DNA of 63,566 nucleotides, filler included, from Reclinomonas americana ATCC 50394 (lineage: Eukaryota): assembly GCA_048213135.1 (NCBI GenBank). It is 19 parts of 19 records of this genome, joined end to end, with 100 filler letters (N's around TTAATTAATTAA, not from the genome) between each part and the next. Parts side by side here need not be neighbours in the genome. Positions count along the whole stretch, not along the records: positions 44,294 to 46,860 come from AFZH01020038.1; 18 more parts are not named here. One strand, 5' to 3'. Position numbers and translations under genes: made by a program. Shown here piece after piece: positions 911-63,566 of this stretch (position 1 is the first letter of the stretch; every line of letters begins with the position of its first letter). The notes beneath the pieces are model-generated. The model was not told the DNA's origin. It saw only the letters and a list, made by a program, of their open reading frames with translations, and ran no database searches.

Positions 911-3685
911 CTACTTGTTCTCCTTGGTCTCCTGCGGCTTTGGCGGCGCCAGCGTCAACACCAGCGGCACGAACACCTTGCGTCGGAAGAGAGCCACCAA
1001 GAAATGCGCGTACACGGTGACAATGACCACATTGGAGATGCCCATGATGATGTAGGTGATGGCGGGTGACACCAGCGTGACGCCATCGTCGTTGGTGAAA
1101 TCGAAGCCTGCCAAACAAAGAAGGGATGTGAGATGCAAGCAAACAAAGCAAGGGAGAAAAAGAGGCACAATGACGCAAACCGGCGACAGAGAACACCGCC
1201 AGAGGGAAGCACCAGGAGAACCACGTGGCGTTGAAACCGTTGACGTAGGTGCGATACACGAACTTGCCGAGGCGAATGTTGAGGAGGAAGAAGAACAAGG
1301 AGCTGTAGTAGAGGATGCGACCCAAGAAGCCGCCATACTGGACCAACAGAAGGATAAGTGAGATGCACAAAGGAGAATACGTGCGCACACAAGGGAGGTC
1401 ACTCACATTGCCCAAACTGAACCACGCGGTGCAGAGGAGGGCCGGCGGGGCGATGAACACAAAGAGCGTGGGGAAGAACACCACAGGGAGCTGTCGCTTG
1501 CCGATGAAAACTGGAAGCGCGAAGGAGTGAGCAAAACAAGGAAAGGAGAGTGAGGGCGACGAGAGGCGCAACTGAACACGGCAAACGTGACGGCCATCAC
1601 AATCGGCCACAGCATGATACCGACGGAGAAGAAAAAGTGACCGAGCGTGAGTTGGCCGACCTTGGGGGCGAGGATGGCGACCGAGGCGGCGGCACCAGCT
1701 GCGTGTGAGGGGGAAGGGAAGTGAAAAGGGAGAAGGAGGTGATGGGAGCAGCAGAGCGAGAGAAGCGGAGCGCAGCAGCGAGAGAAGCGGAGCGCAGCAG
1801 CGAGAGAAGCGGAGCGCAGCAGCGAGAGAAGAGAGCAGAGAGCGAGGGAAAGGAGCACAGAGAGTGAGAGAAGTGGAGCGCAGCAGCGAGGGAAGGGAGC
1901 GCATCAGCGAGGGAAGCGGAGCGCAGCAGCGAGAGAAGCGGAGCGCAGCAGCGAGAGAAGCGGAGCGCAGCAGCGAGAGAAGCGGAGCGCAGCAGCGAGA
2001 GAAGAGAGCAGAGAGCGAGGGAAAGGAGCACAGAGAGTGAGAGAAGAGAGCGGAGAGCAAGAGAGAGGGATGGGAGCGCAGAGCGAGAGAAGGGAGCGCA
2101 GCAGTGAGAGAAGAGAGCGCAACAGCGAGAGAAGAGAGCACTGCAGCGAGAAAGAGAAAAGACGCCATCATCCTTCCCTCCTCTCTCCTCCCTCTCCTTC
2201 TCTTTCATTCTTTCCTTGCTTTCCCTCTTTCCCTCTTCCCCCTCCCTCCCGCCTTCCCCCTTTCCAACTCACATGGAATCAACATGGCCGGCGTCCACAA
2301 CTCCTTCCACGGCTTGGAGGTGTAGAGCCAGCGCCCGACCGTCAACAACAACCAAAATGCCACATTGACAAAGCCGGCCCAAAACAACACAATCGACAGC
2401 GTGTGCACATCGGCAGAGACGCCCACACCCAGCGAACAGCTCGTCATGCCCCACGTGAAGAACAAGCAGACGCGCGTGGGGTTGTGATAGTCCTCGAGGA
2501 AGAGCTTGCGGTAGGCGAGCATCTTCCACACGTAGAGGGCGGTGACAATGGCAAAGTGGGCGCCGGCGAATACGAGGAGCACGTAGGAGACGTAGCGCAT
2601 GCCGTCGATGCCGGTGAGGATGGAGACCTTGCGCCAGTTGCCGGCGAGGGAGGCCAGGCAGAGGCTCATGGCGAAGAGGAAGACGGGGGTGTAGGCCACC
2701 CAGGGGAGGCGAGGTGGAGGTGGGGAAGAGGGAGCTGGAGGCAGCGGGTTGGGGGCGGTGATGGTGGCGTTGGAGGGGGAGGAGACGAGGGAGTGCACGT
2801 CGTTGTGGGCGACGAGCGGGCCGGGGGAGAGAAGCGGGGTGTGGAGGGGGGTCTATGGAAAAGGGAAAGGAAAAGGGGAAGGGGTGAGAGTGTGGAAAAG
2901 AGGGGAGAGAGAGGGAAGGATAGAAGAGAAGTACTCCTCTCTCCTCTTTCTCTCTGCCTTGAAGTCTCGAGAAATGAAAGGGAGAGAGGGAAGAACAGTG
3001 AACAGAAAAGCTTTGTCTTCCTTCCTCTCTCTTCCTTGAGTCTCTTACAACGGGAAGTGTGAGTGGGTGAGGAAGGGAGCGAGAGCGTGAGTGAGAGACA
3101 GAGAGAGAGAGAGAAAGCAAGGAGAGGGAAGGCAAGAGAGAGAAGAGAGGAGAAACTCTCTTTTCTCTTTCTGTCTCTCCTCCTCTATCAGTATCGCGCA
3201 AGAGAAGAGTGAGAGAGACAGACAAGCAAGCAGGATGGCCAAGGAGAGAAGGAGTGAGAGAGAGAGAGAGGAAGAGTGGAAGGAGAAACGCTCTCATTGT
3301 CTCTCGTCTTTTCCTCTCTTTTCTTTCTCTCTCTCTCACACTTTCTCTCTCAGAGAGTTGCACAAAGGAGAGAGGCAGACAAGGAAGGAGAGAGTGAGAG
3401 AGTGTGAGAGTGAGAGAGAGGGAAAGAGAGACGAAGAAACTCTCTCATTGTCTCTCGTTCCACTCTTCCTTCCTCTCTCTTTCTCTCTTTCACTCTCTCT
3501 ATCTCTCTCTCTCTCTTTCTCTCTTTCTCTCTCTCTTTCTCTCTTCTCTCTCAGAGTGTTGCACAAGGAAAGAGAGTGAGAGTGAGAGTGCCAACTGCAA
3601 TAATATGAGGGATTTTTTCTAAGTAACTAACCATTTCCCTTCCTGCTGTGCCTCCGTCACGAATGGCGACATATGCAGTGCTCAT
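911..3685 (-). CDS. SLAC1/TehA/Mae1 (TDT family) anion channel, 6 exons: 3685-3632, 2852-2273, 1698-1573, 1510-1407, 1337-1181, 1107-911 (about 405 aa)
   Basis: Exons join in frame (1218 nt) with GT-AG introns; multiple TM helices; family-like motifs EDYHNPTRVCLF, PTLFVFIAPPA and FNATWFSWCFPLA; the first exon is inferred from phase compatibility. Confidence 0.8.
1749..2150. repeat. Intronic 22-bp minisatellite (CGAGAGAAGCGGAGCGCAGCAG) with a larger internal duplication
   Basis: Tandem copies with no unique spacers, inside the 1699-2272 intron; a ~50-bp block is duplicated at about 1823 and 1996. Confidence 0.9.
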
Positions 3686-4948
3686 TGTTGTCTTGTTTGT
3701 GTGTGAGAGTGTGTGTTCTCTCTCACAGAGACAACAACAATCAGTGAAGGGAGAGAGAGACTGCAAAGAAAATGCCGCGCGGAATAATTCCATTTTGTCG
3801 TGTTCGAATTATCGGAAGCTCGGAGGTGAGACTGGGAGGTGGCAGCTGGCTTTCTGTGCGGGTGGAAGGATGTAGTGTAGGTTCTATACGATGAGAGGTG
3901 CAGATGAAGTTCAGATATTTCGATATCGATTTCATGAGAAACAGGAGTAGGAATTCGAACGTTAACTGCAGGCTTGGTACTGTACACAAGGGTTTCTGGA
4001 GGTCCTGCACGTGGTAACATGTGCAGCGATTGCCTCTTCAACTGCATAACGTCGGTGAAGAGATAGATCGCAGATCTCGCGATATCGATCGAAGGAGTCG
4101 AAGTATTCGAAGCAGAGCGAACACTGAAACAAAAACCCTGCTGCTGCTGCTTCAAGACTGGTGTTTTCTGGATATGGTTGGTCTTGGTCATCAAGACAGC
4201 TGTTTGCTTGTTTGTCGGAGAATGAATTGTTGTTGTTGTTCCTGTCGAGGCAACAAAATCGAATTTGTCAAAACCGGCAGAGCTTTGGAATATCGATCCA
4301 ACTGAAGCCGAGTGCGGCAGAGCTGAGGCGATTCGGGCGAGGGTGCAACATCGTTTGTTATATTTCTTCCTTCGTCGTGGTGCTGCTTCGCAGAGGTGTC
4401 GCCGCAAAAAAAGGTCGATCGTTTCGATTTCACGAATTTGGAAAGTCGAATTCTCTGAGTGGCTGAACGCTCTTTGAGGTTCTGCACAACGACAGCTCCA
4501 TTGTCCTCTCTCTACGTAGATTACGAGACCGCGTTGAAGGCGAAATCAGCAAAGTTCCTGATAAATTCTGTGGCCGGATCTGCAACGGATTTGGATCCAG
4601 ATATCGGAGAGTACTTCGAACTCAAAGCCAGGTCCAAGTGCACGACAAGGCAGCGCCAAATTCCCCACTGCCACCTCTGCGTAAAATACAAGAGTCGAAG
4701 GCGAAAGCAGCAGACTTCCTCACAAGGCTGCGGATCGATATCCAAATATCGGAAATTCAAACTCCATGGCCCTGCCCTCAAATGCACAACAAAAAAAGCA
4801 GCTTTCATCAACGTGGATCTCCCATTGTTCACTGTTCGTCAAACAAACACAAAACGTAAAACCTTGCGCGGAAAATTGGGCGGGGAAATTCGCGCTTGTA
4901 TTTGCACAACTTTTTCTTTCTTTGTTTGTGAGAGAGTGCGCGCACGAG

Positions 4949-5071
4949 ATGAGCGACAAGGCAGCGTTGAAGGTGAAAGCAGCGGAGTTGACCGCTGTCA
5001 AGACCGGCTTCCTCACGAAGGAAGGTGTGTGTGTGTGTGAGAGGGAAAAAGAAAAAGGAGTGAGCGCATCT

Positions 5072-5107
<36 letters not shown>

Positions 5108-5511
5108 TGTGTGTGTGTGTGAGAGAGAGAGAAAGATGCGTGTGTTTGTGTGTATGTGTGTTTGTGTGAGAGTTTGAGAAAATTGTACTTTTGCGCACTT
5201 GTGGATAATGACGCACTCTCTCTCTCTCTCACGCACTCTCTCTCACACACACAGAGAGAGACACACTCACGCACAGACACGCACACAAGAGAGACACTTT
5301 GAGTGCGCGCACATTTACATTACAAATTCTCGCACTTCTCCGCTCTCTACGCGCACACACTCTTCTCTCTCTCTCTGTGCGCGCGCGTGTGTCAATGAGA
5401 GAGTGTGTGTTGAGTGTGAGAGAGAGAGAGCAAGTGAATTTGAGAATGTGGGAATCTCATGCATTGTGCTTGTTGTTTTTCAGGTGGTGTCTTCAAGACG
5501 TGGAAGAAGCG
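4949..5511 (+). CDS. 5' exons of a PH-domain protein (exons 4949-5024 and 5484-5511; partial)
   Basis: Spliced MSDKAALKVKAAELTAVKTGFLTKEG/GVFKTWKKR matches the PH beta1-beta2 signature (KxGxLxKxGGxxKxWKKR); GT...CAG intron and a GTGAGT donor after exon 2. Confidence 0.8.
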
Positions 5512-5519
5512 GTGAGTAT

Positions 5520-5551
<32 letters not shown>

Positions 5552-5568
5552 CTGTGTGTGTGGGATTT

Positions 5569-5668
5569 NNNNNNNNNNNNNNNNNNNNNNNNNNNNNNNN
5601 NNNNNNNNNNNNTTAATTAATTAANNNNNNNNNNNNNNNNNNNNNNNNNNNNNNNNNNNNNNNNNNNN
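5569..5668. other. Artificial contig spacer N44-TTAATTAATTAA-N44 (first of 18)
   Basis: The same 100-nt spacer starts at 9048, 12707, 15674, 17543, 18928, 20164, 21645, 25102, 28307, 29706, 35822, 37888, 44194, 46861, 49945, 61004 and 62311; it places stops in all six frames. Confidence 0.99.
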
Positions 5669-7171
5669 AGACCTCGGGCAGTTCGCCGGCCTTGAGGAAG
5701 CCGGTCCATTCATAGCGCCATCGCCGGGCACCGGCATCAGGCCGTCATGGTTCGGGCGCTGCGGTGCGCGCCCGCCGACGATCCAGCCGATATTGCCCTT
5801 GTTGTCGGCATAGACCTGGTTCTCGGACGGCGCGCCCCATTCAGCCATCGCCTTCTTGAAGCCGGCCCAGTCCTTCCCCGTCATGTATTCGGCCGAGTTG
5901 AAATAGGCCGAGGTTCCCGGCTCGAACCAGACCGTGCGGATGGCGAAGGCGCGCTTCTCCTCGGGCTCAGCCTTCATGACCGGGCCGTGGCGGGTGAATT
6001 TGAGCTCGATCTGGCGCGGTGCCTCGCCCTTGACCTCGATCGTCTCGCTGACGGTCTTCATCTCCTCCCAGCCGCTGCCATAGCGATACTGGTTCGGATT
6101 GGCGGGGTTGGTCTCGTAGACGTAGAGGTCCTCCTGATCGATCGCGAAGATCGTCAGGCCGAAGGCGATCTCGCCATTATGGCCGATCGAGATGCCGGGC
6201 AGGGCCGGCTCGCCGGCACCGATCACCGAGAGGCCGGGTGCGTTGAGGTGCACGACATAGCGCAACGACGGCACGCCATGAGCGCGATGCGGGTCGTTGG
6301 CTAGGATCGGCCGGCCGGTCGCGGTGCGGCTCGCGGCGATCGTCCAGTTGTTCGAGCCGATGGTCGAAACGCTGTCGCCCGCTGCGGCGAAGATTGCGTC
6401 GCGGTCGAGCGCCGCGCGCTTCTCGCCGGGAGCGGCGAAGGTCACGTCGCGCGTCGCGAGATTGTAGTCGTCGAGGATGTCCGGCTTGATCACGCAGGGG
6501 TCGAGTCCCTCTGGGACCTTGGTCGCCACGCTCGGCTCCAGCACGCGCCGGAAGCGATCGGCCTCGATGCCGGCGGCGCAGGCGACGCGGGCCCGCACCA
6601 CCTCGGACATCACGTTGCGGGTCAGGCCATGGCTGCGGATGCGTACGACATCCTCGGCGCTCCAGCGATCAGGCAGGGTGCCGGAGACGCGAAAATCGAG
6701 CGGCAATGGTTGCTTGCCAGCCCGGACCTCGTCGACACGGGCGTTGATGCCGGCGACGAAGGCGTCGGTATAGGCCTTCGCGTCGGGGCCGTAGGCGGCC
6801 CATTCCTTGTCCATCTCGCCACGATAGATGAAGAGCCGGGCGGCGCGATCCTGCGCGACATAGGACGGCCCGAAATCCTTGGCCAGCAGCCCGAGCCCGC
6901 GCTTGCGCCAGAGATCGATCTGCCAGAGCCGATCGCGCGCCGCGTTGTAGCCTTGCAGGAACAGGGCGTCGCGAGACGAGGCGGCGTAGATATGGGCGAC
7001 GCCCCATTGATCGAGGATGAGTTCCGCCGGCCCCTGCAGGCCGGCGACGGTCTGCTCGGAACGCTTCACCGCGCTGGACAGCTCGGCCTTGGCGGGCAGG
7101 CTACCGGCGATCGTGAGGGCGGCAATGGCAAACAGCGACGCTGCGCTGTATGCGCGATCTGCTCTGCTCAT
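5669..7171 (-). CDS. Penicillin acylase / AHL-acylase family Ntn-hydrolase (peptidase S45), 3' partial
   Basis: Signal peptide, DQWGVAHIYA, QGYNAARDRLWQ and the beta-chain nucleophile motif GSNNWTIAASRTATGRPILANDPH; GGAGG RBS before ATG 7171; an apparent 1-nt frameshift near 5715. Confidence 0.93.
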
Positions 7172-42402: not shown

Positions 42403-44131
42403 GCACCGCTCCGTCCTTTTCGCGGACTTTGACCGTCAGATAGGCCGGCTTCTCGATCGCATCCTCGTCGAGCAGGAAGGTTGTGCCTCGCCAGCGGCCG
42501 GGTGCAGCGCGCGATGGCTGATCCTGCGATGCACTCATCACCCGAGACTTGTACTCGACCGTCAACTCCGGAGAGCTAAGGCCGGCGACATCGAGTTTCA
42601 ACGCCAGCTTCTTGGTTTCGTCGTCGCGGATGATGCGGCCGGTCACGGCCTTCATCGTGCCGTCGCTCGCCAGGATGGCCTTCAGTCCCTCCTGACGGAT
42701 GATCGGATCGGGCGCCGCAGGGTAGGCTGGATACTCGATCCGCTGCTGGCGCAGCGAGATCGCTATCGGCATGGCTCGGGGCATCGGGGCTGAATAGCGC
42801 CAAGGCATTCGTCGCGTGGCGGCCTGAGGCAGGTATCCCGTCAGATCGAGCGCTTTTCCCAGTAACGTGCGGAGGGCCTCCGGAGAACCGGCGCGCCAGC
42901 AGTAGCTCACGAAATCAATGTTGAAGTGACGCAAGCGAACTTCGCCACCGCTGCAGGAGAAGTCGCCGCGGCCGAGCGGTTTCGAGGCCGCTGGAGTGCC
43001 TTCGTCCGGTAGCCCAACAGCCTCGCAAGTTGGGTATCGCAGCGCATATTCGCAGCGATAGTCATGATAGCCGCGATGCTCGTCATATGGGGTTTCCGCC
43101 CGCACGGAAGCATAAAAATCGAGTGCGGATAGAGGATACAGAGCGACGGTGCCTCGCCGAATTTGCAGCAGGAACATAACGTGTATCGCGCCAAGGAAGA
43201 GCGCGAGCCCCACGATGATCAGGCGCCGATACGCGACGAGCTTCAGATCCGACGACTCTGTCGACGGAGGGACAGCCCCAGCGAACCGGGCGCGAAAATA
43301 GTCCCAGTCGATGAAGAAGCAGCCGATGAAGAGCCAATGGTACTGCCAGAGCCCCATGATGAAGCCCAGCCCCAAGGTGCTCATCGAGTAGAAGACACCC
43401 TCGACGAGGCGGGCGTAGGGCCGACGCAGGGAGAACAGCGCGGCGATCGGGGCGGCTTGCAGAAACAGGTGGAACAGGCCGGCCGCCTTGTAAAGGAACG
43501 GGCTCGACCACATCGTTTCCACGTACCAGGGGATATTCTGGACGTCGTAGCCGAGCCAGGTGACAGCAAGCGAAAAGCGCATGTTGTCGCTGTCCCACCA
43601 GGCGATGGGGCCGCCCCAGTAGAGCTTGGCCCAGAACGCGCCGTAGAAGAATGCGCATGCCGCCACCAGGCCGGCAACGACGGGCCATGATGCTTCGCCT
43701 GGGGCTACTGGGCGCCCGTGGCTCCAGCTAGGCCGCCGTTTCCAGATCGCCCGGTCGATCGAAAGAGAGGCTCCAGCGCGACTGAACATGAACGGCAGCG
43801 CGCAATAGAAGATCAGGTTGTAGCCATGAGACCAATACGGCGCGATGCCTTCGCGGACGCAGACGAGGATGATTGTCGAGATGGTCGCGACGATCATGGC
43901 CGGCCGGGTCAGGAAGCCGATGACGGCGAGAATGCCGGCGATCGGCGCCACGACCGCACTCGCATCGATCAGCCAATTCGGAGGGCTTTTCCCAAAGAGG
44001 ATCAGTATGCCGAAGGGGTTGTACTCGACATGCGCGCGCAGCCAGTCGCTCGGCCAGCCAAACGCATTGAAAAGGGCGATCTGATTGATGGCGGAGAGCA
44101 GGACAGCGCTAAACAGGAACACCCTGCACAT
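42371..44131 (-). CDS. HTTM-like polytopic membrane protein with a periplasmic C-terminal domain
   Basis: Multiple TMs; IGFLTR, SHGYNL, AGASLSIDRAI and FFYGAFWAKL resemble the HTTM/DoxX-like domain; overlaps the DCC1 gene; the start may lie further upstream. Confidence 0.65.
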   Translation of the reverse strand: MCRVFLFSAVLLSAINQIALFNAFGWPSDWLRAHVEYNPFGILILFGKSPPNWLIDASAVVAPIAGILAVIGFLTRPAMIVATISTIILVCVREGIAPYWSHGYNLIFYCALPFMFSRAGASLSIDRAIWKRRPSWSHGRPVAPGEASWPVVAGLVAACAFFYGAFWAKLYWGGPIAWWDSDNMRFSLAVTWLGYDVQNIPWYVETMWSSPFLYKAAGLFHLFLQAAPIAALFSLRRPYARLVEGVFYSMSTLGLGFIMGLWQYHWLFIGCFFIDWDYFRARFAGAVPPSTESSDLKLVAYRRLIIVGLALFLGAIHVMFLLQIRRGTVALYPLSALDFYASVRAETPYDEHRGYHDYRCEYALRYPTCEAVGLPDEGTPAASKPLGRGDFSCSGGEVRLRHFNIDFVSYCWRAGSPEALRTLLGKALDLTGYLPQAATRRMPWRYSAPMPRAMPIAISLRQQRIEYPAYPAAPDPIIRQEGLKAILASDGTMKAVTGRIIRDDETKKLALKLDVAGLSSPELTVEYKSRVMSASQDQPSRAAPGRWRGTTFLLDEDAIEKPAYLTVKVREKDGAVHEFYDVAWWF

Positions 44132-44293
44132 GCCCAGTTGCAGCTCGAACCCTTCTCGAAAGAAGTACCTCTCGGTTCCTTCCTTCAGCGAGCNNNNNNN
44201 NNNNNNNNNNNNNNNNNNNNNNNNNNNNNNNNNNNNNTTAATTAATTAANNNNNNNNNNNNNNNNNNNNNNNNNNNNNNNNNNNNNNNNNNNN

Positions 44294-44703
44294 GCGCGAG
44301 GAGCCGCCGCTGGCGCGGATCGTCGTGGCGATCGATCCGCCGGCCTCCTCGTCGAAACGGGCCGATAGTTGCGGGCTCGTCGCGGCCGGCATCGACCGCG
44401 ACGGCATCGGCCATGTACTGGCGGATGGAACCCTCGCCGGCGCCAAGCCGCATGAATGGGCGGCGGCCGCCGTCGCGCTCTATCGCCGACTGGAGGCCGA
44501 TGCGCTGGTCGTCGAGGTCAACCAGGGCGGCGAGATGGCAAGCAGCGTCATCCGCGAGGTCGATCCGGGCGTGCCGGTGACGCCGGTGAGGGCCTCGCGC
44601 GGAAAATTCCTGCGGGCCGAGCCGGTGGCGGCTCTCTATGCGCAAGGCCGCGTGCGTCATGCCGGTGCCTTTCCGGCGCTCGAGGACGAGATGTGTGATT
44701 TCG
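44294..44703 (+). pseudogene. GTA-type (RcGTA g2-like) large terminase, C-terminal nuclease domain, interrupted by a prophage
   Basis: RIVVAIDPPA...DSCGLVAAG...ADALVVEVNQGGEM...VRASRGKFLRAEPVAALYAQGRVRHAGAFPALEDEMCDF, then an abrupt switch to AT-rich sequence; the expected SPDRxDALVWA motif is absent. Confidence 0.8.
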
Positions 44704-44758
44704 TCTCTCGTCCATATTTTATGGCCTTTTCGGGCTATGTTTTACAGCGATTTTCCAA
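44685..44758. other. Putative att junction of prophage 2
   Basis: Terminase similarity ends at GAGATGTGTGATTTCG; an AT-rich ~55-bp arm follows, then the integrase stop codon. Confidence 0.65.
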
Positions 44759-45799
44759 TCAGGTGTTCTTGGCGCGTTCTGCCAGCTTGACGACGGCGGC
44801 CTTGCCACTCTGCTTGCGGTCGGCAAATCGGCTGTAGCGCTCGATCATCGACATCGACATTCCGATCACGTCCTGGATCTGCGCGGTCGCAAGGCCGGCT
44901 TGGCGCAGACGGATGACGGCCGTGGCACGCAATCCATGCAGGGTCACATTGGCGAGCTCGGGAATAGCCTCGCGCGCTTCGTCGAAGTGGATGCTGAAAC
45001 GCTTGCGACTGTAAGGCTTGCCACTCTCCTGCAGCATGTAGGGTCCAGGCCGGCGCTCCCAGTCCGCCATCTCCTTGGCGAGCTCGGGCAGGATCGGGCA
45101 CCAGACCTGCCGACCGGTCTTGATCTGCGCGAGATCAAAGCCGCCATCGTCGACGAAGGTCGGGCCCAGCCGCACGACGTCGGATCCACGCTGACCTGTA
45201 TAGAGGGCGAGCATCACGCCGCGCCGAACCATGCCGGTCAGGTGCTGGTGAGCTGCTGCAATCTGCGCGTCAGTCCAAGGCTTGTGTCCGCCTGTCACCT
45301 TGTAGGGCTTCACGCCCTCGGTCATGGAAGCCTGCAGGTAGTCGTTGACGACGGCCCAGGACGAGAATGCGCGCATGACGCCAAGGAAGTTGTTGGCGGC
45401 GCCGGGACGATCTTCCATACCTTCGATGATCTCTCGGATGATCGGCGGCCGCAGCACACTCATCGGCTGCTCGCCGAACCCGGCGCAGACGACCTTCATC
45501 TGACGCTCGTATTGGTCTGCGGTGCCGGCCTTGCGTGGGAAAGCCTTCGACACGCGATAGAGATCGGCGACGGCCTTGACGGTCATCTCCTCCTTGACCG
45601 CGGACAAGCCCTGCGCCTCACGCAGCTTGACCCAGAACTCAGGCGTCGTTGGGTCATTCGGCAGCGCCTTGCGCTCGCCTTCGTGCGCGGTCCCGCGGCC
45701 CGGGTGCCAATAGAAGTACTCCCGGCCGCGCGAGACGACGCGATGCACGCCCTTAGGCAGCTCGACCACGCCTGCTATCTTTCGACGCTTCGATGGCAC
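44759..45799 (-). CDS. int: Tyrosine recombinase / integrase
   Basis: LALYTGQRGSD (R), TLHGLRAT (HxxR) and IERYSR (Y); AAGGAG RBS before GTG. Confidence 0.95.
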   Translation of the reverse strand: MPSKRRKIAGVVELPKGVHRVVSRGREYFYWHPGRGTAHEGERKALPNDPTTPEFWVKLREAQGLSAVKEEMTVKAVADLYRVSKAFPRKAGTADQYERQMKVVCAGFGEQPMSVLRPPIIREIIEGMEDRPGAANNFLGVMRAFSSWAVVNDYLQASMTEGVKPYKVTGGHKPWTDAQIAAAHQHLTGMVRRGVMLALYTGQRGSDVVRLGPTFVDDGGFDLAQIKTGRQVWCPILPELAKEMADWERRPGPYMLQESGKPYSRKRFSIHFDEAREAIPELANVTLHGLRATAVIRLRQAGLATAQIQDVIGMSMSMIERYSRFADRKQSGKAAVVKLAERAKNT

Positions 45800-46037
45800 G
45801 TCGCACTCCTTCCGAAATCTTGGACGAAGGATCGTCCGATGCGCCCGCCAGCGAGGCAAGCGCCATGTCGACGGTCTCCCAGCGCCAGCGCACGCAGCCT
45901 GGCGACAGCCTGACAGGCTGGGGGATCACCCCGCGCCGGACCATTTCGTCGACCGTGCTCTCGCTCACGCAGAGCTCGCCGGCCAGGGCCGACTTGGACA
46001 GGTAGGATGCGGGGCGTTCCATGGTGGCCCGAGCCAT
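45753..46037 (-). CDS. Excisionase / AlpA-like HTH protein
   Basis: YLSKSALAGELCVSESTVDEMVRRGVIPQPVRLSPGCVRWRW; overlaps the int start. Confidence 0.85.
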   Translation of the reverse strand: MARATMERPASYLSKSALAGELCVSESTVDEMVRRGVIPQPVRLSPGCVRWRWETVDMALASLAGASDDPSSKISEGVRRAIEASKDSRRGRAA

Positions 46038-46292
46038 CCTCACCTCCCTCCCATATGAGGCCAGTCGCCGGGGGCGTCTTCCATAGGGTCGGGAAGAGGG
46101 CGGGAGTTCGCGATCCAGAGGGCGGCGCGGATCAGCGCGTAGACGACCAGAGCCGCGATGATGCCGGCTGAGAAGCCTTGCCACGTGATCATCGCGAGCC
46201 TGTCCTCCCGCTGAGATAGAGAGCCACCGCAAAGGCACCCAATACCCAGCAAAACGCGATGATGAGGTAGACCTCGGTTGCAGTTAGGCCGT

Positions 46293-46982: not shown

Positions 46983-47381
46983 TCAGGCTGCCCTCGCTTC
47001 ATCGGCGAACACCACGCCGTGCCGCGCGCCAAAGGCGGCGATCACCTCCATGAGGTCGCCCATCTCGGCTTTGCTCAGATCGGAAGACGATCGACCGATG
47101 TTGACAAAGCCTGTCCCATCCAGATTTGGCACTGCCCGGACCTCTCGCTTAAGCGCGTCCAGGAAGATCAGCTTCCAGTCGTCTGGTGCCAGCACAAGGC
47201 CGTGCCACGGCACCTGCCTCGCCACGTCAGTGAGCATCGCCCACATGCGATCGTTCTGCGGTAGCGACCGCTTGCTGGCCTTGATTTCCACGCGTGTCCC
47301 ATGCGGCGCCTGTCGGACCCATGAGGCCGCGCGGTTCCGGCTTTCCTGGCTGTCGAGGATGACGAGGCGCCGGGTCATCAC
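46983..47381 (-). CDS. ninB: NinB/Orf recombination protein
   Basis: KRSLPQNDRMWAMLTDVARQV...DDWKLIF...SSDLSKAEMGDL. Confidence 0.9.
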   Translation of the reverse strand: MMTRRLVILDSQESRNRAASWVRQAPHGTRVEIKASKRSLPQNDRMWAMLTDVARQVPWHGLVLAPDDWKLIFLDALKREVRAVPNLDGTGFVNIGRSSSDLSKAEMGDLMEVIAAFGARHGVVFADEARAA

Positions 47382-48001
47382 GCGGCCGCCTGTCGGTTGT
47401 AGGCGCGGACGCGGTCGACGATCATGTCGAGCTCGGCATTGAACTGGTCGACGGCCTGCGCGAGTTCGGCGATGTACGCCTCATCGCGGTATGCGCGCTT
47501 CACGAAGAGCGGCATGCCAGGCCAATAGACCGCGATGTCGATCCACTCGCGTTCCGACACCCATAGCTGGCCCTGGCACTGCGCCTTGTGCTCTGGCGGG
47601 AATTCTCCACGCAGCAGCACCTCGACCATCAGGTGAGGGAGCTTGGTCTTGATTTCGACCAGCCCGTCGGCGCCGATCAAGCTGTCGGGCGATGCGCCCT
47701 TGCGGCCGTTCCGGATGAAACCAACGCGCTCGCAGTCGCGGTCGACCATGAACTCGTAGAGCGTGCGGGCCTCCGCCTCCATTGCGTGACCGCGCTCGGT
47801 GTGAGCGTTACCGAAGCTCTCCATCGGCTGGCCGGTGATGATCTCGCCGGCGAGCTTGTAGAGGTAGGTCTGGCGCGTCTTGCTGTCGCCGCCGCTACGG
47901 CCCTTGGCAATCACGGTGGCGAACTCGGAAGCGGTCGGGATGCCCATGCGGGCCTGGAACCACTCCGGCGAGTTCTGATCGCAGTCGATGATCTGCATCA
48001 C
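47378..48001 (-). CDS. YqaJ / lambda-exonuclease family protein
   Basis: QNSPEWFQARMGIPTASEF...GASPDSL...VEIK...QCQGQLW. Confidence 0.92.
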   Translation of the reverse strand: MMQIIDCDQNSPEWFQARMGIPTASEFATVIAKGRSGGDSKTRQTYLYKLAGEIITGQPMESFGNAHTERGHAMEAEARTLYEFMVDRDCERVGFIRNGRKGASPDSLIGADGLVEIKTKLPHLMVEVLLRGEFPPEHKAQCQGQLWVSEREWIDIAVYWPGMPLFVKRAYRDEAYIAELAQAVDQFNAELDMIVDRVRAYNRQAAA

Positions 48002-48759
48002 CGCCCCCCAGTTTTCGCGTTGAGCATGCGGACGGCTTGCTCGAACTTGGCGGCGGGGAGATCGGCGAGGCCTTCGATCTGGAAATGGCGGAGGAACCGC
48101 GGCTTGTCGGCTCCGACGCTTTCGATCAGTTCGACGATTTGGCCAAGCTGATCTTCGCTGATGGACGCAGTCTGCACCCCCGACGATTTGCCATCATCGT
48201 CAGCCGCCGCCGCAAGGCCCAAGGCGGCCTTGAGCGTATAGCGCTGCAGATAGGTGATAGCGCTTCCCATCTGCTGGATCAGATTCTTTTTGCCGCTATC
48301 GTCGCGCGGGCCCGTGAGCGTGTTCTCCTCGCTGTGACCATCGCGATGGGACACGATGCAGGTGACGCTGATCGGCTGGTTGATCTCCGACGTGGTTCGG
48401 AAGCGATAGGAGAGGCCGTGACGGGCCAGGATCGGGTCGACGGTCTTGGCGATCTCGCCGAGGTCTTCGTGCCGGTACTCCGTTTTGCTGCCGTCCTTGT
48501 TGTCGAAGCCGACGATCCGGTTCTTGCGAATAACGGGGATCTCGGCCTTGGCCGCAGCCAGCGCCTCGTCGAACGCCTTGCGGGCCCGGCCGGCTTCCCA
48601 GCGCTCCTGAAGCGCGAGGAGCTTCTCCAATGTCTCCGGATTGGCACCGCGCTCGACGGCCTGGCTGAGCATGGCCATGGGCGTGATGGCTGACACGGCA
48701 TAGCCGGAAGGCGCGGCGTCGCTCTCAGGCGACAGAATGGTGAGGGCTGCATTGGCCAT
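47998..48759 (-). CDS. ERF family single-strand annealing protein
   Basis: YRHEDLGEI...PILARHGLS...GSAITYLQRYTLKAALGLA..DDDG. Confidence 0.92.
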   Translation of the reverse strand: MANAALTILSPESDAAPSGYAVSAITPMAMLSQAVERGANPETLEKLLALQERWEAGRARKAFDEALAAAKAEIPVIRKNRIVGFDNKDGSKTEYRHEDLGEIAKTVDPILARHGLSYRFRTTSEINQPISVTCIVSHRDGHSEENTLTGPRDDSGKKNLIQQMGSAITYLQRYTLKAALGLAAAADDDGKSSGVQTASISEDQLGQIVELIESVGADKPRFLRHFQIEGLADLPAAKFEQAVRMLNAKTGGR

Positions 48760-48767
48760 GGTGAACC

Positions 48768-49820
48768 TCAGAATTTCAGGGTGACGGCAGGGACGCTCCC
48801 GGCCACGATGGCGAGCACGACCTTCTTGGCCGCGGCTTCGCTGATGCCGCCGTTCTCAATCAGCGCTTCCTTGGCGGCGCGCATGACGTTGCCGCGGTGT
48901 TCCTGGTCGGCCTGCCGTCGGGCTTCCTCCACCGCGATGGCGTCCAGCCGGCGCTGTTCGGCGGCCTGAGCCTCGCGCTGGCGAGCCTGCTCAGCGGCCA
49001 AGGCCTGTTCGGCTTCCTGAGCTTTGCGCCGCTCGGCTTCGATCGCGGCCTCCGCATCAGCCTTCAGCTTCGCCTCGGCGGCATCGGCTGCACGCTTCTC
49101 GGCGTCGGCGATGCGCTGCCGCTCCTCTTCCTCAGCGAGGCGCTTCTCTTCCGCCGCCTGGGCGGCGCGCTCGCGCTCCTGGGCTTCAGCGCGCAGCTTC
49201 TCCAGCTCGGCGCGCTCAGCATCGGCCTTGACGATCGCAGCGCGGGCTTCCGCCAGCTTGGCGAGGGCCGCGAACTTGTCCTGCTTGGCGCGCGTCTCGC
49301 TGTCGCCGAACTCGTGGCCAATCTGGATTGCGTCCACCTTGGCAACGGTCGCGTCGATGCTCTCGACAGTCGAACCGGTCGGAACGACCGCAGCCTGTGC
49401 GAAGAAGGCGAGGGCGCTGACGATGCGGTCCTTGCGCTTCTTCTCGGCGTCTTCCCATTCGGTCAACGGAGCGCGAGCGAGGTCACGCAGAGCGTCGAGC
49501 TGCTGCTCGACCTTGGACTTGAGCGCATTGACGCCGGCAGTCTTCTTGCGCCAGTCCTCGGTCAGAGCGGCGCCAGCCGCTATGATCGGCGTCTTCCGCG
49601 TAGAGATCGAATAGGCCAACGACGCGATCGCCTTGCGGCCGCTGTCCGTCGTGAGGTCGACAGGAAGAGCTGCGATCTCGGCCTTGATCTCGGCGACGAA
49701 CGCCGGGAGAACCGTGTCGTCACGATAGACGATGGCAGGCTCTGCCTTGATCATCTCGCCAACAGCAGCCGAGTTGTGGCCGATGGTTACGGGCCGTTCG
49801 AGGGTGGCGGCGTCGCTCAT
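48768..49820 (-). CDS. Coiled-coil phage protein
   Basis: DLTTDSGRKAIASLAY...LDALRDLARAPLTEWE plus a long E/A/R-rich helix. Confidence 0.75.
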   Translation of the reverse strand: MSDAATLERPVTIGHNSAAVGEMIKAEPAIVYRDDTVLPAFVAEIKAEIAALPVDLTTDSGRKAIASLAYSISTRKTPIIAAGAALTEDWRKKTAGVNALKSKVEQQLDALRDLARAPLTEWEDAEKKRKDRIVSALAFFAQAAVVPTGSTVESIDATVAKVDAIQIGHEFGDSETRAKQDKFAALAKLAEARAAIVKADAERAELEKLRAEAQERERAAQAAEEKRLAEEEERQRIADAEKRAADAAEAKLKADAEAAIEAERRKAQEAEQALAAEQARQREAQAAEQRRLDAIAVEEARRQADQEHRGNVMRAAKEALIENGGISEAAAKKVVLAIVAGSVPAVTLKF

Positions 49821-50153
49821 GAGAATCTCCGATCGGGAAGGGCTGCGGCTGCTGTAACGGCCAAGGCGGATGTACGGTACAGGCAGGGCAGCAGACGCAT
49901 CCATGACCATCTCCTTCACTGCCGTCGTCGCCGACCTTCCAGACNNNNNNNNNNNNNNNNNNNNNNNNNNNNNNNNNNNNNNNNNNNNTTAATTAATTAA
50001 NNNNNNNNNNNNNNNNNNNNNNNNNNNNNNNNNNNNNNNNNNNNTCCGCTCCGGCCTCGACAACGTCGACATCGCCTGGCGCCTCGAATGCACCCCAGCT
50101 GCAGCGGCCAACGGCATCGCCGCCGCGCGCGAGCACGAACGGGCGAGGGCGGC

Positions 50154-61103: not shown

Positions 61104-62310
61104 GCGCCGGCTATCTGCTGTCGAAGGCGACGCAGGCCAAGGCCAACAAGGAAGCCGAGAGCCGGCCGGTCTATGGCGTCTCCGGTGGTGGCAACCTGCC
61201 GCGCTCCGGCGATCGCATCCCGGTGGTCTATGGCCGCTGCTGGAACACGCCCGACCTCTCGCAGCCGGACTACACGATCTACGACGGCGACGACCAGGTG
61301 CTCTACAAGCGCCTGACCATCGGCTGCGGCAAGTATGCGATCAAGTCGATCCGCGTCGGCGGCATCACGATGTGGACGGATAGCGGCGGCCTGACGCCGC
61401 CCTTCACCGGCGCCAATTTCGAGGTGATCCAGCCGGGTGGCTATTCCAGCCTGGTGCCGGGCGCCGTCGCCACCGTGCAGGCGGTCTCCAGCAACGAGCT
61501 GCCGCGGGTCACCGATTTCCCGAACTGGGCAGGCCCGTTCGACTTCGGTGTCGATGCGCCGAACCAGAGCCGGATCCAGCTCGATTACTCGCTGCCCCAG
61601 GGCGTCTATGCCGTGCCGCAATCGGGCAAGTTCCAGGGCCAGCAGTTCCCGACCGATTGGGGCGTGACCTTCGAATATGCGCCCTGCGACGAGGACGGCA
61701 ACGTCATCGGCAGCTGGTCGACGCTCTACACCGACGGCGGCAATGCGCTGTCGACGAGGGCGATGCGCTTTACCCGTTTCGTCACGATCCCGGCCGGCCC
61801 TGGACGCTATACCTTCCGCGCCCGCAACATCGGCGCGCCGGCGACGGCCGAGCATCCCTCGGGCTTCACCGCCGACATCACCAATATCGTGATTTGGGAA
61901 GGCCTGCGCTCGCACATCCCGGAATTCATCGCGCGGCCGGGCGTCACCGAGCTTGCCATGGTGATCCGCTCCGGCAAGGCGCTGGGTGTCACCTCGTTTG
62001 GCGAGGTCGAGGTCGAGAGCAGCAAGATTCTGCCGGTCTGGTACGGCCTGCCGACTGGCTGGGTCGAGCAGGAGACCGACAAATGCGTCTGGGCGGCCGC
62101 CGATATCCTGCGCAACCAGCTGCACGGCGCCGGCATCGAGGACGGCACGGTCGATATCGCGCGGCTGAAGCATTACTTCGACACGCTGACGGACTACGAC
62201 ACCTTCTCCGGCGTGATCCGCGGGCCGATCTCGGTCTATGAGGCGCTCTCGACCGTGCTCGGCCCGATGCGCGCCTCGCCGCTGCGCCTCGGCTCGATCT
62301 GGACGATCGT
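61104..62310 (+). CDS. Tail tip / host-specificity protein (lambda J / TipJ-like), internal fragment
   Basis: GNLPRSGDRIPVVYGR...PDL...LTIGCGKY...GRYTFRARN...WAAADILRNQLHGAG. Confidence 0.8.
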
Positions 62311-62410
62311 NNNNNNNNNNNNNNNNNNNNNNNNNNNNNNNNNNNNNNNNNNNNTTAATTAATTAANNNNNNNNNNNNNNNNNNNNNNNNNNNNNNNNNN
62401 NNNNNNNNNN

Positions 62411-62452
<42 letters not shown>

Positions 62453-63530
62453 GAGAGAGACGGCGAGGTGTCATTTGCTGCAGATCGCGCTTGATGAGGC
62501 CCGTGAGCTGTCATTCGTCTGACAATGCGGCAGAGACTGTGGTCAGATTGAGGTCGGCATTCGCTGAAGAAGGAAACAGAGATGGCAGGCTATTACCCTC
62601 TGCGGACTTGTTGCTTAAAGCGAGGGCAGTGAGACAACAGAGATGTGTGGGACAGCCTGCTTCTCTCTTTTCATTCACCAAGAAGAGATAGAGAAATCCA
62701 GCGATGCATTAAGAGACAGATCGCATTCTGTGAGTCTCTGCGCGCGAGTTTGTGAGAGCGAGAATCATTAGCGAAGAAAGACCTGTGGCTGTATGGCAAG
62801 GGATTTGTGGACAGTTGTCGAATTATTGTGATATGGTGAAGTGTTTTGTTATTCTCTCTCATTCCATCTGCTCACAGACGCCGTTCTTCGCGCTCTGCTG
62901 CGTGCCGAGTTCTCTCGATTCGCCTCGACGGATCCGTTCGCCACCCTGCGCGGTGCGACGCTGACCACCAAGTTCCTCGATGCCTATGTCCGTTGCGTTG
63001 CCGAGCACAGAATGGCGGCGGCATCTCTCTTCACTATTTTGCACTCACTGGCCCCGCCCACACAGAGCGCGGCAACGTCTCCGCCTACCTGCTCCAACTG
63101 CTCCACGACGTCCTCGGTCGCATCATCCAGTCGCCCGCCAGCTTCGAGATCGACATTGAGTTGCGTTTACGTCGCGTTCAATAGGTGTCCACGTTTTCAT
63201 GCCCTCTTTTCTGATGCACGGGGTCTCATTCCCTCTCCCGCCGCTACTGCATTTCGCTCCGTTTTCTACACGCGCTTGCTCTCCTTTCCTCTCGTGGCCT
63301 CTTCTCCTGCTTGTTTCCAATCACGCTTATCTGCATTCTTGTTTTCTGCTCGTCACTTTCCTGTTGTTGTCCATTCACGCTTGCTCACTCCCCCTCTTGC
63401 TCTCATTCCTCGTCCGCATCTCACTCGCGCCAGTTGCTCTTCCTTTCTCTTTTCCTCGCCTTCTGTCCCCTCTCGTTTCGTGTCGCCGCGCGTGGTCTTT
63501 GTCTTTCCCCAAGTCTCTCTCTCTCACTCT

Positions 63531-63562
<32 letters not shown>

Positions 63563-63566
63563 CTCC
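62411..63566. other. Eukaryotic contig
   Basis: (GA)n/(CT)n tracts, polypyrimidine-rich introns and spliced exons. Confidence 0.9.
62878..63159 (+). CDS. RasGAP-domain protein, two internal exons (62878-62991 and 63066-63159)
   Basis: Spliced AVLRALLRAEF...TLRGATLTTKFLDAYVQRGNVSAYLLQLLHDVLGRIIQSPASFEIDI resembles the RasGAP pattern (LFRGNSLxTK...YL...L...I...SxEIDP); CAG acceptors and GTTGCG donors. Confidence 0.75.

Follow-up and report, generated by a model that had tools for sequence, protein, structure and literature searches.

A temperate phage apparently integrated in the large terminase gene of an RcGTA-like cluster

The truncated terminase gene and its junction with phage DNA

The stretch of DNA analysed here (the window) comprises 63,566 bases from the Reclinomonas americana ATCC 50394 assembly GCA_048213135.1. 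One of its contigs, AFZH01020038.1 (44294–46860; 2567 bp), joins a 3′-truncated large terminase gene (terL) of gene transfer agent (GTA) type to an arm of phage DNA and a convergent integrase gene, the arrangement that a temperate phage integrated within terL would leave. The window is a chain of 19 contigs (1.1–11 kb) connected by artificial joiners of the form N44-TTAATTAATTAA-N44, one of which lies immediately to the left of the contig under study (44194–44293); it is not a single molecule, and contigs side by side in it need not adjoin in the genome. The bacterial host of the prophage is an alphaproteobacterium, probably of the genus Bosea. Two records serve as references, the nearest genome (G001) and a near-isogenic IMG/VR provirus record (G002). 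Window contigs 3–14 are 99.6–100% identical to G002 and contigs 3–15 stand in the same order as in that record; the chain looks reference-ordered. Two segments of G002 are without a counterpart in any window contig: 42478–43865, containing g1 and the first two-thirds of terL, and 44276–45672, containing the terminase 3′ end and the portal gene.

The g2-like terL (44295–44702, rightwards transcribed) is cut at its 5′ end by the contig edge at 44294, which is no biological start. Its native part consists of 136 codons of the RNaseH-like nuclease domain, ending in ...FPALEDEMCDF, and matches Pfam Terminase_6C (PF17289) with 64.6 bits over profile positions 2–132 of 155; the intact terL of G001 matches positions 2–154. 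Over the segment 44294–44703 (410 nt) the DNA agrees with G002 at every base (100%) and with G001 at 96% of them. In a three-way alignment the identity stops right after 44703 (..GATTTCG|TCTCTCG..), and the intact genes of G001 and G002 run on as GPTGLSSGRSPDRLDALVWALTHLMLAPKGRPRVRGL*, followed by a gene for a 390-aa HK97-type portal. The last 37 terL codons (GPTGLSSGRSPDRLDALVWA...) are absent at the junction and no replacement is supplied: the fused frame continues into a phage-derived tail (44703–44837, rightwards) of 44 residues unlike terminase, with its stop codon at 44835–44837.

The integrase-proximal phage arm of attL (44704–44758) is a 55 nt segment with 40% GC in a contig of 66%. 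Its first bases, TCTCTCGTCC, repeat the terL flank GGACGAGA in inverted form, and it includes a CTGTAAAAC motif, which relatives too have beside the integrase gene. The adjoining gene (44759–45859, leftwards transcribed and thus convergent with terL) codes for a 366-aa tyrosine integrase (PF00589; 30.7 bits, cut-off 27.1) in which R224, H308, R311 and Y342 are invariant across three aligned homologues, corresponding to the R...HxxR...Y signature. An ORF (open reading frame) resembling excisionases and helix-turn-helix regulators (45753–46238, leftwards; phrog_66, E 4e-8) comes next after the integrase gene, and its true start is probably internal. A promoter scan of this contig returned 0 sites. 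The first-pass annotation had described a GTA-type terminase that reads normally to ...FPALEDEMCDF, runs into an AT-rich arm and a convergent integrase, lacks its SPDRxDALVWA-type motif and is not repaired by the phage. The reading frame, Pfam match and GC content agree with this description, the motif is present in the intact G001/G002 allele and absent here, and the 44 unrelated residues before the stop show that the phage brings no substitute 3′ end.

GTA affiliation of the interrupted gene

The predicted gene order and family content in G001 support the assignment of the interrupted terL as the large terminase of an RcGTA-like cluster, upholding the GTA affiliation claimed at the outset. 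In G001 a small g1-like ORF lies just upstream of terL (PF03237 and PF17289), which is followed on the same strand by genes for the portal (PF04860), an S78 protease (PF04586) and an HK97 capsid (TIGR01554). Next are genes for a gp6-type connector, head closure, tail completion, a TP901-1 tail tube and a GTA-gp10 chaperone, and a tail module coding for a 202-aa tape measure, an Rcc01695-family protein, the hub (g13), an NlpC/P60 protein (g14) and the N-terminus of the megatron (g15). Families TIGR02217, TIGR02218 (hub) and TIGR02219 score above their cut-offs, and RcGTA_tape (NF058675) reaches 164 bits, below its cut-off of 220. GTA_megatron (NF048004) is above cut-off in G001 and in two lysogens described below, G380 and G204; g15 is intact in both lysogens and split in G001, at about residue 233–236, by ~40 kb (contig 19: 24720–27923 and 68152–68871; L007) carrying GPD hub, baseplate J, tail-fibre, DNA methylase and GapR genes. 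No integrase, replication or lysogeny genes are seen from g1 to g14 in G001; a Mu-like prophage abuts g1 and the prophage-like insert splits g15. The closest TerL homologues are labelled ‘DNA-packaging protein’ of Bosea and Chelatococcus, and the same GTA cluster is present in other genera of the order.

The missing C-terminal segment

The lost segment is conserved. Across 22 homologues it contains the invariant pattern G..GL..GRSPDRLDALVWA; the invariant residues of the C-terminal segment are F423, G424, G427 and L428 followed by the uninterrupted run G431, R432, S433, P434, D435, R436, L437, D438, A439, L440, V441, W442 and A443. An AlphaFold model of TerL is poor in the ATPase half and good over residues 274–452 (pLDDT, predicted local distance difference test, 80–93). 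A helix at 414–422 ends at the junction, and the lost part holds a further helix at 435–449 (pLDDT ~90). A VIA-align comparison with 48,161 Protein Data Bank (PDB) chains gives Z values of 15–18 to large-terminase nuclease domains, with alignments passing through the lost segment; the matches include Sf6 gp2, G20c, T4 and RB49 gp17, P74-26, P22, HK97 and SPP1, and they reach model residues 447–459. When TerL was compared with the PDB by sequence, the match was confined to the ATPase portion of T4 gp17, and the nuclease part was matched by the fold search.

The catalytic triad of gp17 is D401/E458/D542 (PMC3074133). In the alignment with T4 gp17, model residues 273–455 pair with chain residues 360–561, and these ranges suggest that D435 or D438 may be equivalent to gp17 D542. 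The proposal that the lost motif carries conserved nuclease-domain aspartates is thus sustained by the helix with invariant aspartates in 22 homologues, the model and the fold alignments. A lysogen whose TerL is deprived of its last 37 residues would be predicted, from the modelled fold, to have GTA DNA cutting and packaging switched off.

Recurrence of the insertion in relatives

Integrase homologues (E <= 1e-30) occur in 2 of 401 same-family genomes, and both lie at a terL split at the same codon. In Methylobacterium thuringiense (G204) the integrase is convergent with a terL ending ...ALEDELCEF|ISRPLS, and the arm ATCTCTCGTCC equals the window's GTCTCTCGTCC except for its first base. In G380, which belongs to the genus of G001, the terL 5′ part ends ..EDEMCEF|NRT* and is followed by a 10.6-kb insert, from which the integrase gene reads out into ..ATGTGCGATTTCGG.., the 3′ end of terL and the gene for the portal.

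When one genome per species was scanned, 38 integrase loci emerged, and in ten of these terL is the neighbour of the integrase. Five are convergent (a Bosea metagenome-assembled genome (MAG), Microbaculum marinum, M. oxalidis, M. thuringiense and Methylobacterium sp. J-076) and five co-directional (Methylobacterium sp. W2 and MAGs of Mesorhizobium, Methylocystis, Hyphomicrobiales and Shinella). Among 27 IMG/VR loci terL adjoins the integrase in 13, of which 12 are co-directional and one is convergent. The terL gene consists of exactly one 5′ part and one 3′ part in 10/10 further genomes or records and likewise in G380 (11 in total). In those ten the 5′ part ends at about aa 470–479, and the 3′ part starts at aa 424–465 (462–465 in seven) and ends at 504–506. 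All 17 of the co-directional 3′ remnants detected by tblastn still read SPDR.DA, and neither orientation class restores terL. The arm of the Bosea MAG, GTCTCTGGTCCATATTTCATGG, is homologous to the window arm TCTCTCGTCC.

The survey of integrase homologues suggested by the first-pass annotation thus finds the same insertion site repeatedly, and the central claim of that annotation, a phage integrated inside a GTA terminase gene, is supported by the empty site of G002 together with the same split and direct repeats in relatives. In the available portions of the literature searched (including PMC12429752, PMC8224337, PMC8601537 and PMC13626063; supplements not examined) nothing was found that describes a prophage or satellite inserted into a terminase gene of a GTA.

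The Bosea MAG locus (L020), which is the closest relative locus, has its own peculiarity: at 3564–4196 the gene by the phage arm consists of an integrase-like N-terminus and other sequence, with ~480 nt to terL.

Attachment sites and insertion orientation

The att core is predicted to be TGTGTGATTTCG (44692–44703, in the rightwards sense), the last bases shared with the intact allele. It equals the attL/attR repeat of relatives and the attP core of a free phage, save for C in place of the fifth T. In the convergent class the attL/attR direct repeat is ATGTGCGATTTC in G404 and G405 (12 bp) and TGTGCGAYTTCGGCC in G403 (15 bp), and in the co-directional G380 and G407 it is ATGTGCGA (8 bp). Beyond the repeat these relatives have the 3′ end of the terminase gene and the GTA portal gene. 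The core proposed earlier was therefore nearly right: a direct repeat, ATGTGCGATTTC, does flank the prophages of relatives and does lead into the terL 3′ end and portal.

The free phage is G413 (L095–L099), whose record is 59,163 bp long, has ends that overlap by 95 bp and scores 100% for completeness in CheckV; since it is complete and contains no GTA-type terL, it is a free phage genome. Its attP, read in the terL sense, is ..GCCAAA-CTGTGCGATTTCG-TCTCCCACCC.., with the core TGTGCGATTTCG, and lies beside an integrase 65% identical to that of the window. By blastn G413 resembles the window phage solely from window 44692 through the integrase (69%, 1282 nt), and because the similarity starts at 44692 the window core is placed at 44692–44703. 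G413 is otherwise unrelated to the window phage, so the integrase/att module moves between phages. As a guide to the far arm of the window phage G413 was rejected, as only this module is common to the two.

The terL site is a near-palindrome, GA(G/A)A-TGTGYGA-TTTC. On the integrase-sense strand the half-site GATGAAAT is present in both orientation classes and is followed by GTGCGA in the co-directional class or by its reverse complement CGCACA in the convergent class. An inverted crossover sequence in attP could explain the two insertion orientations.

Integrase phylogeny

A quick maximum-likelihood tree was built from 63 of 66 integrase rows, three ORFs shorter than 300 aa being left out. It splits into clades of 26 and 31 rows with SH-aLRT (Shimodaira–Hasegawa-like approximate likelihood ratio test) values of 98 and 96. 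The 31-row clade, within which the window integrase falls, contains 18 co-directional terL rows, seven convergent terL rows and six without a terL assignment, one of which is G413. The orientation classes interleave, with L023 nested among convergent Methylobacterium rows, and two members of the clade (L027 and L028) sit at other sites. A search of GenBank phages (50,697 records) found no close relative of the window integrase, the best match being below 30% identity.

The 26-row clade comprises 16 rows beside a transfer-messenger RNA (tmRNA) gene and ten without an assigned target. Eight of these ten have at most 233 nt of flank past the integrase, and the other two (L036 and L041) have ~4 kb of flank resembling sequence beside tmRNA loci. 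The tmRNA genes concerned are of the two-piece kind and are found in Rhodobacteraceae, Devosia and Xanthobacteraceae (16 loci; the clade spans L031–L046, L050, L076, L082 and L083).

Small co-directional elements

The co-directional inserts measure 10.1, 10.6, 10.6, 10.8, 11.3, 12.0 and 17.8 kb. Small elements occupy the terL core in the orientation that puts the integrase next to the 3′ end of terL, transcribed in the direction of the GTA portal gene, in G380 (L018 3523–14148), G408 (L092), G410 (L091), G407 (L088) and G409 (L090). The G380 (10.6 kb) and G408 (10.8 kb) elements have the order HNH, TerL, regulators, phrog_5707, capsid, Ad1, protease, portal, Hc1 and integrase, and no tail genes are recognised in either. 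The G410 element is similar; those of G407 and G409 differ and carry tape-measure-like ORFs. Gene content like that of phage-inducible chromosomal islands that form capsids (cf-PICIs), namely 10–15 kb with a capsid-to-connector set and no tail genes, is therefore found in G380 and G408 and not in G407 or G409. By this analogy the G380 and G408 elements may be capsid-forming satellites. Their connectors are 27–32% identical to GTA g6/g7; a special closeness to the GTA connectors was considered and, at that identity, rejected as support.

Other phage genes in the window

Two further contigs appear to belong to the phage. A recombination module (46983–49919, leftwards transcribed) contains NinB/Orf, exonuclease, an Erf-like annealing protein and phrog_1376. 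A rightwards-transcribed contig (50088–60831) codes for a helicase, a DNA methyltransferase, an O-like replication protein, HNH, TerS, TerL (phrog_9), portal, protease and major capsid protein; this TerL, the phage's own, is of a different family from the GTA terL. With the contig order assumed, the element has the appearance of a complete temperate siphovirus.

A Mu-like transposable myovirus prophage lies directly upstream of GTA g1 (window 9148–44193, contigs 3–14; G001 contig 19, 80790–123221) and has repressor, ParB-like, MuB-like, terminase, gpF-like, portal, sheath, tube, baseplate and fibre genes. The 42.4-kb Mu-like segment is inverted in G001 relative to G002 and the window; the alignments of G001 with G002 and the window overlap by ~35 bp at both segment ends, where there are imperfect Mu-type terminal inverted repeats. 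Record G002 consists of this prophage together with GTA g1, terL and portal (L001, L004–L006) and is listed in IMG/VR as a provirus with a CheckV completeness of 100%; its border was placed inside the GTA cluster, so the record ends in GTA genes. The contigs at the ends of the window differ in composition, with a G+C content of 47–52% at 3001–6000 and 62001–63566 versus 60–70% elsewhere.

Discussion

The reading favoured here, at a probability of roughly 0.8, is that a temperate HK97-like phage is integrated in the g2-like terL of an RcGTA-like cluster, which offers a conserved and expendable landing pad, and that the GTA is silenced as a by-product. Recurrent, integrase-specified insertion into the GTA terminase is firmly supported as genuine, and the 12-base terL core, which related phages and small elements also use in many further alphaproteobacteria, looks like a dedicated landing site that switches the GTA off. 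The tyrosine integrase would have recombined an attP core, TGTG(C/T)GATTTCG, with the same 12 bases in the terL codons Met-Cys-Asp-Phe-(Gly). The portal-to-tail genes would thereby be cut off from the g1–terL promoter region. The attR is expected to read phage arm-TGTGTGATTTCG-GTCCGACAGGG..., followed by the portal gene, and excision by Int and Xis would rebuild terL exactly. The most likely reason for the choice of site is that a conserved and expendable sequence makes a good landing pad; silencing of the GTA would be a by-product, which may suit the phage too.

Several points weigh against this account. The far junction (attR) of the prophage falls outside the window's contigs, and a search of the window for a second core copy or attR sequence gave no extra matches. 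Exact scans for the phage arm found no copy in the metagenome contigs (two patterns) or the viral contigs scanned, so the window junction stands on one 2.5-kb contig and on analogy. The integrase contig appears linked to the other phage contigs by gene order only. With the full-length query only the 5′ part of terL was found in G204, G414 and G415. The pairing of D435/D438 with D542 is known as aligned ranges and not as residue-level output. The split of g15 in G001 means that the GTA may not be active in every strain, and the genus is not known to produce GTA particles.

Two doubts about the locus itself can be set largely aside. A misjoin at 44703/44704 in a low-coverage, fragmented assembly is scarcely credible: the contig is short (2567 bp, one of 19) and has no exact junction copy in the metagenome or viral contigs scanned, but the same codon and a homologous arm recur in independent assemblies of other species, and the break falls exactly on the attP core of the free relative G413. 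It is also very unlikely that the terminase is that of an ordinary prophage. IMG/VR does file G002, with its terL and portal, as a 100% complete provirus (CheckV), and a Mu-like prophage abuts the cluster; however, terL is not one of that prophage's genes, since a terminase, a portal and the complete myovirus set are already among them. The terL of G001 instead heads an RcGTA-type order with RcGTA_tape, the Rcc01695 family, the TIGR02218 hub, TIGR02219 and GTA_megatron, and further genera of the order have this cluster too.

The remaining alternatives concern what the insertion does. An active-lysogeny switch, in which the prophage is a regulatory cassette excised precisely in GTA-producing cells to restore terL, would draw on several features of the locus. 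The insertion interrupts terL without restoring its 3′ end, the core is a direct repeat such that excision would be exact, the integrase and excisionase are intact, SPDR.DA is kept by 17/17 co-directional 3′ remnants, and the megatron is intact in two lysogens. GTA producers lyse and are terminal cells, and other excision switches operate in such cells. Against this, the insertion is polymorphic between near-isogenic records and rare (2/401 family genomes), the integrase/att module is common to otherwise unrelated phages, and the window element is a full phage with its own lytic genes and a free relative, G413, rather than a degenerate cassette. The window also contains no full CtrA boxes (TTAA-N7-TTAA), although this is a weak test. 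Because near-isogenic G002 has an empty site, the insertion is a strain polymorphism and no fixed regulatory element; that empty site, the rarity and the free-phage relative argue for ordinary lysogeny. A host-programmed switch is required by no observation and is quite improbable.

An adaptive anti-GTA strategy, with the site selected because disabling the GTA spares the lysogen from GTA-linked lysis and the prophage DNA from being cut up by a rival packaging machine or having to compete with it, is possible but doubtful. A 31-row integrase clade is tied to one site, while its sister clade uses tmRNA, which is usually restored by the phage; neither orientation class restores terL; and the cut takes a conserved catalytic-fold element and no dispensable tail. 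There is a conceptual parallel in mobile elements that disrupt competence genes (PMC12637031). Yet a gene that is conserved and non-essential makes a good attB on neutral grounds, disruption of terL in a producer gives no protection from incoming GTA DNA, and these genera are not known to have active GTAs. A more elaborate proposal is that the integrase clade left tmRNA by a change of the crossover sequence only and landed in the near-palindromic 12-bp core of GTA terL, where full temperate phages silence the GTA when inserted one way and tail-less, capsid-encoding 10–12 kb elements insert the other way, read straight on into the portal-to-tail genes and use the GTA as a helper, for tails and perhaps induction or lysis signals, with the orientation flip corresponding to a flip of the attP centre. 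This is improbable; if it were true, GTAs would be hosts of their own satellites.

GTAs are regarded as domesticated phages serving the host, and a recurrent integrase-specified site in their packaging enzyme would be a natural GTA off-switch and direct evidence of phage–GTA conflict, or at least interference. The lysogen and the near-isogenic empty-site strain offer a simple test of the cost or benefit of the GTA to cell and phage. The insertion accounts for ‘truncated’ GTA terminases and misplaced provirus borders in databases, and its integrase is a site-specific one whose target is conserved throughout GTA-bearing Hyphomicrobiales. The tmRNA and terL sister clades, with two orientations at one near-palindromic core, form a compact case of change in integrase target and polarity.

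Comparison with known systems

The cluster headed by terL in G001 resembles RcGTA in gene order and family content. It differs in that the genus is not known to produce particles and in having mobile elements at three places in these strains: the Mu-like prophage upstream of g1, the phage in terL and the ~40-kb insert in g15 of G001.

The integrases that use tmRNA (ssrA) in alphaproteobacterial prophages form the sister clade and share the placement of the integrase 3′ end facing the att site, as well as an arm half-site, ATGAA(A/G)T, beside the crossover region. The crossover itself differs, being GCAGGC.. in tmRNA and GTGCGA or CGCACA in terL. At tmRNA loci the gene adjoins the integrase, whereas insertions of the terL clade divide a protein gene and do not repair it.

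The cf-PICIs are capsid-forming satellites (bioRxiv 10.1101/2022.09.08.507074). The G380 and G408 elements are like them in carrying integrase, HNH, TerL, capsid, protease, portal and head–tail connector genes with no tail genes found. They differ in having no recognised alpA or primase–rep module, in being located in a GTA gene of Hyphomicrobiales, and in having no known helper.

Known cases of active lysogeny include Listeria phi10403S in comK and, in Bacillus, skin in sigK and SPbeta in spsM. The likeness lies in a recombinase-driven insertion in a protein gene that is not restored, where exact excision would rebuild the gene, and in a target that serves a subpopulation or terminal cells. 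Here a GTA terminase is the gene interrupted, the element varies between strains and looks fully lytic-competent, and regulated excision is hypothetical; across genera, many different phages and small elements share a single site.

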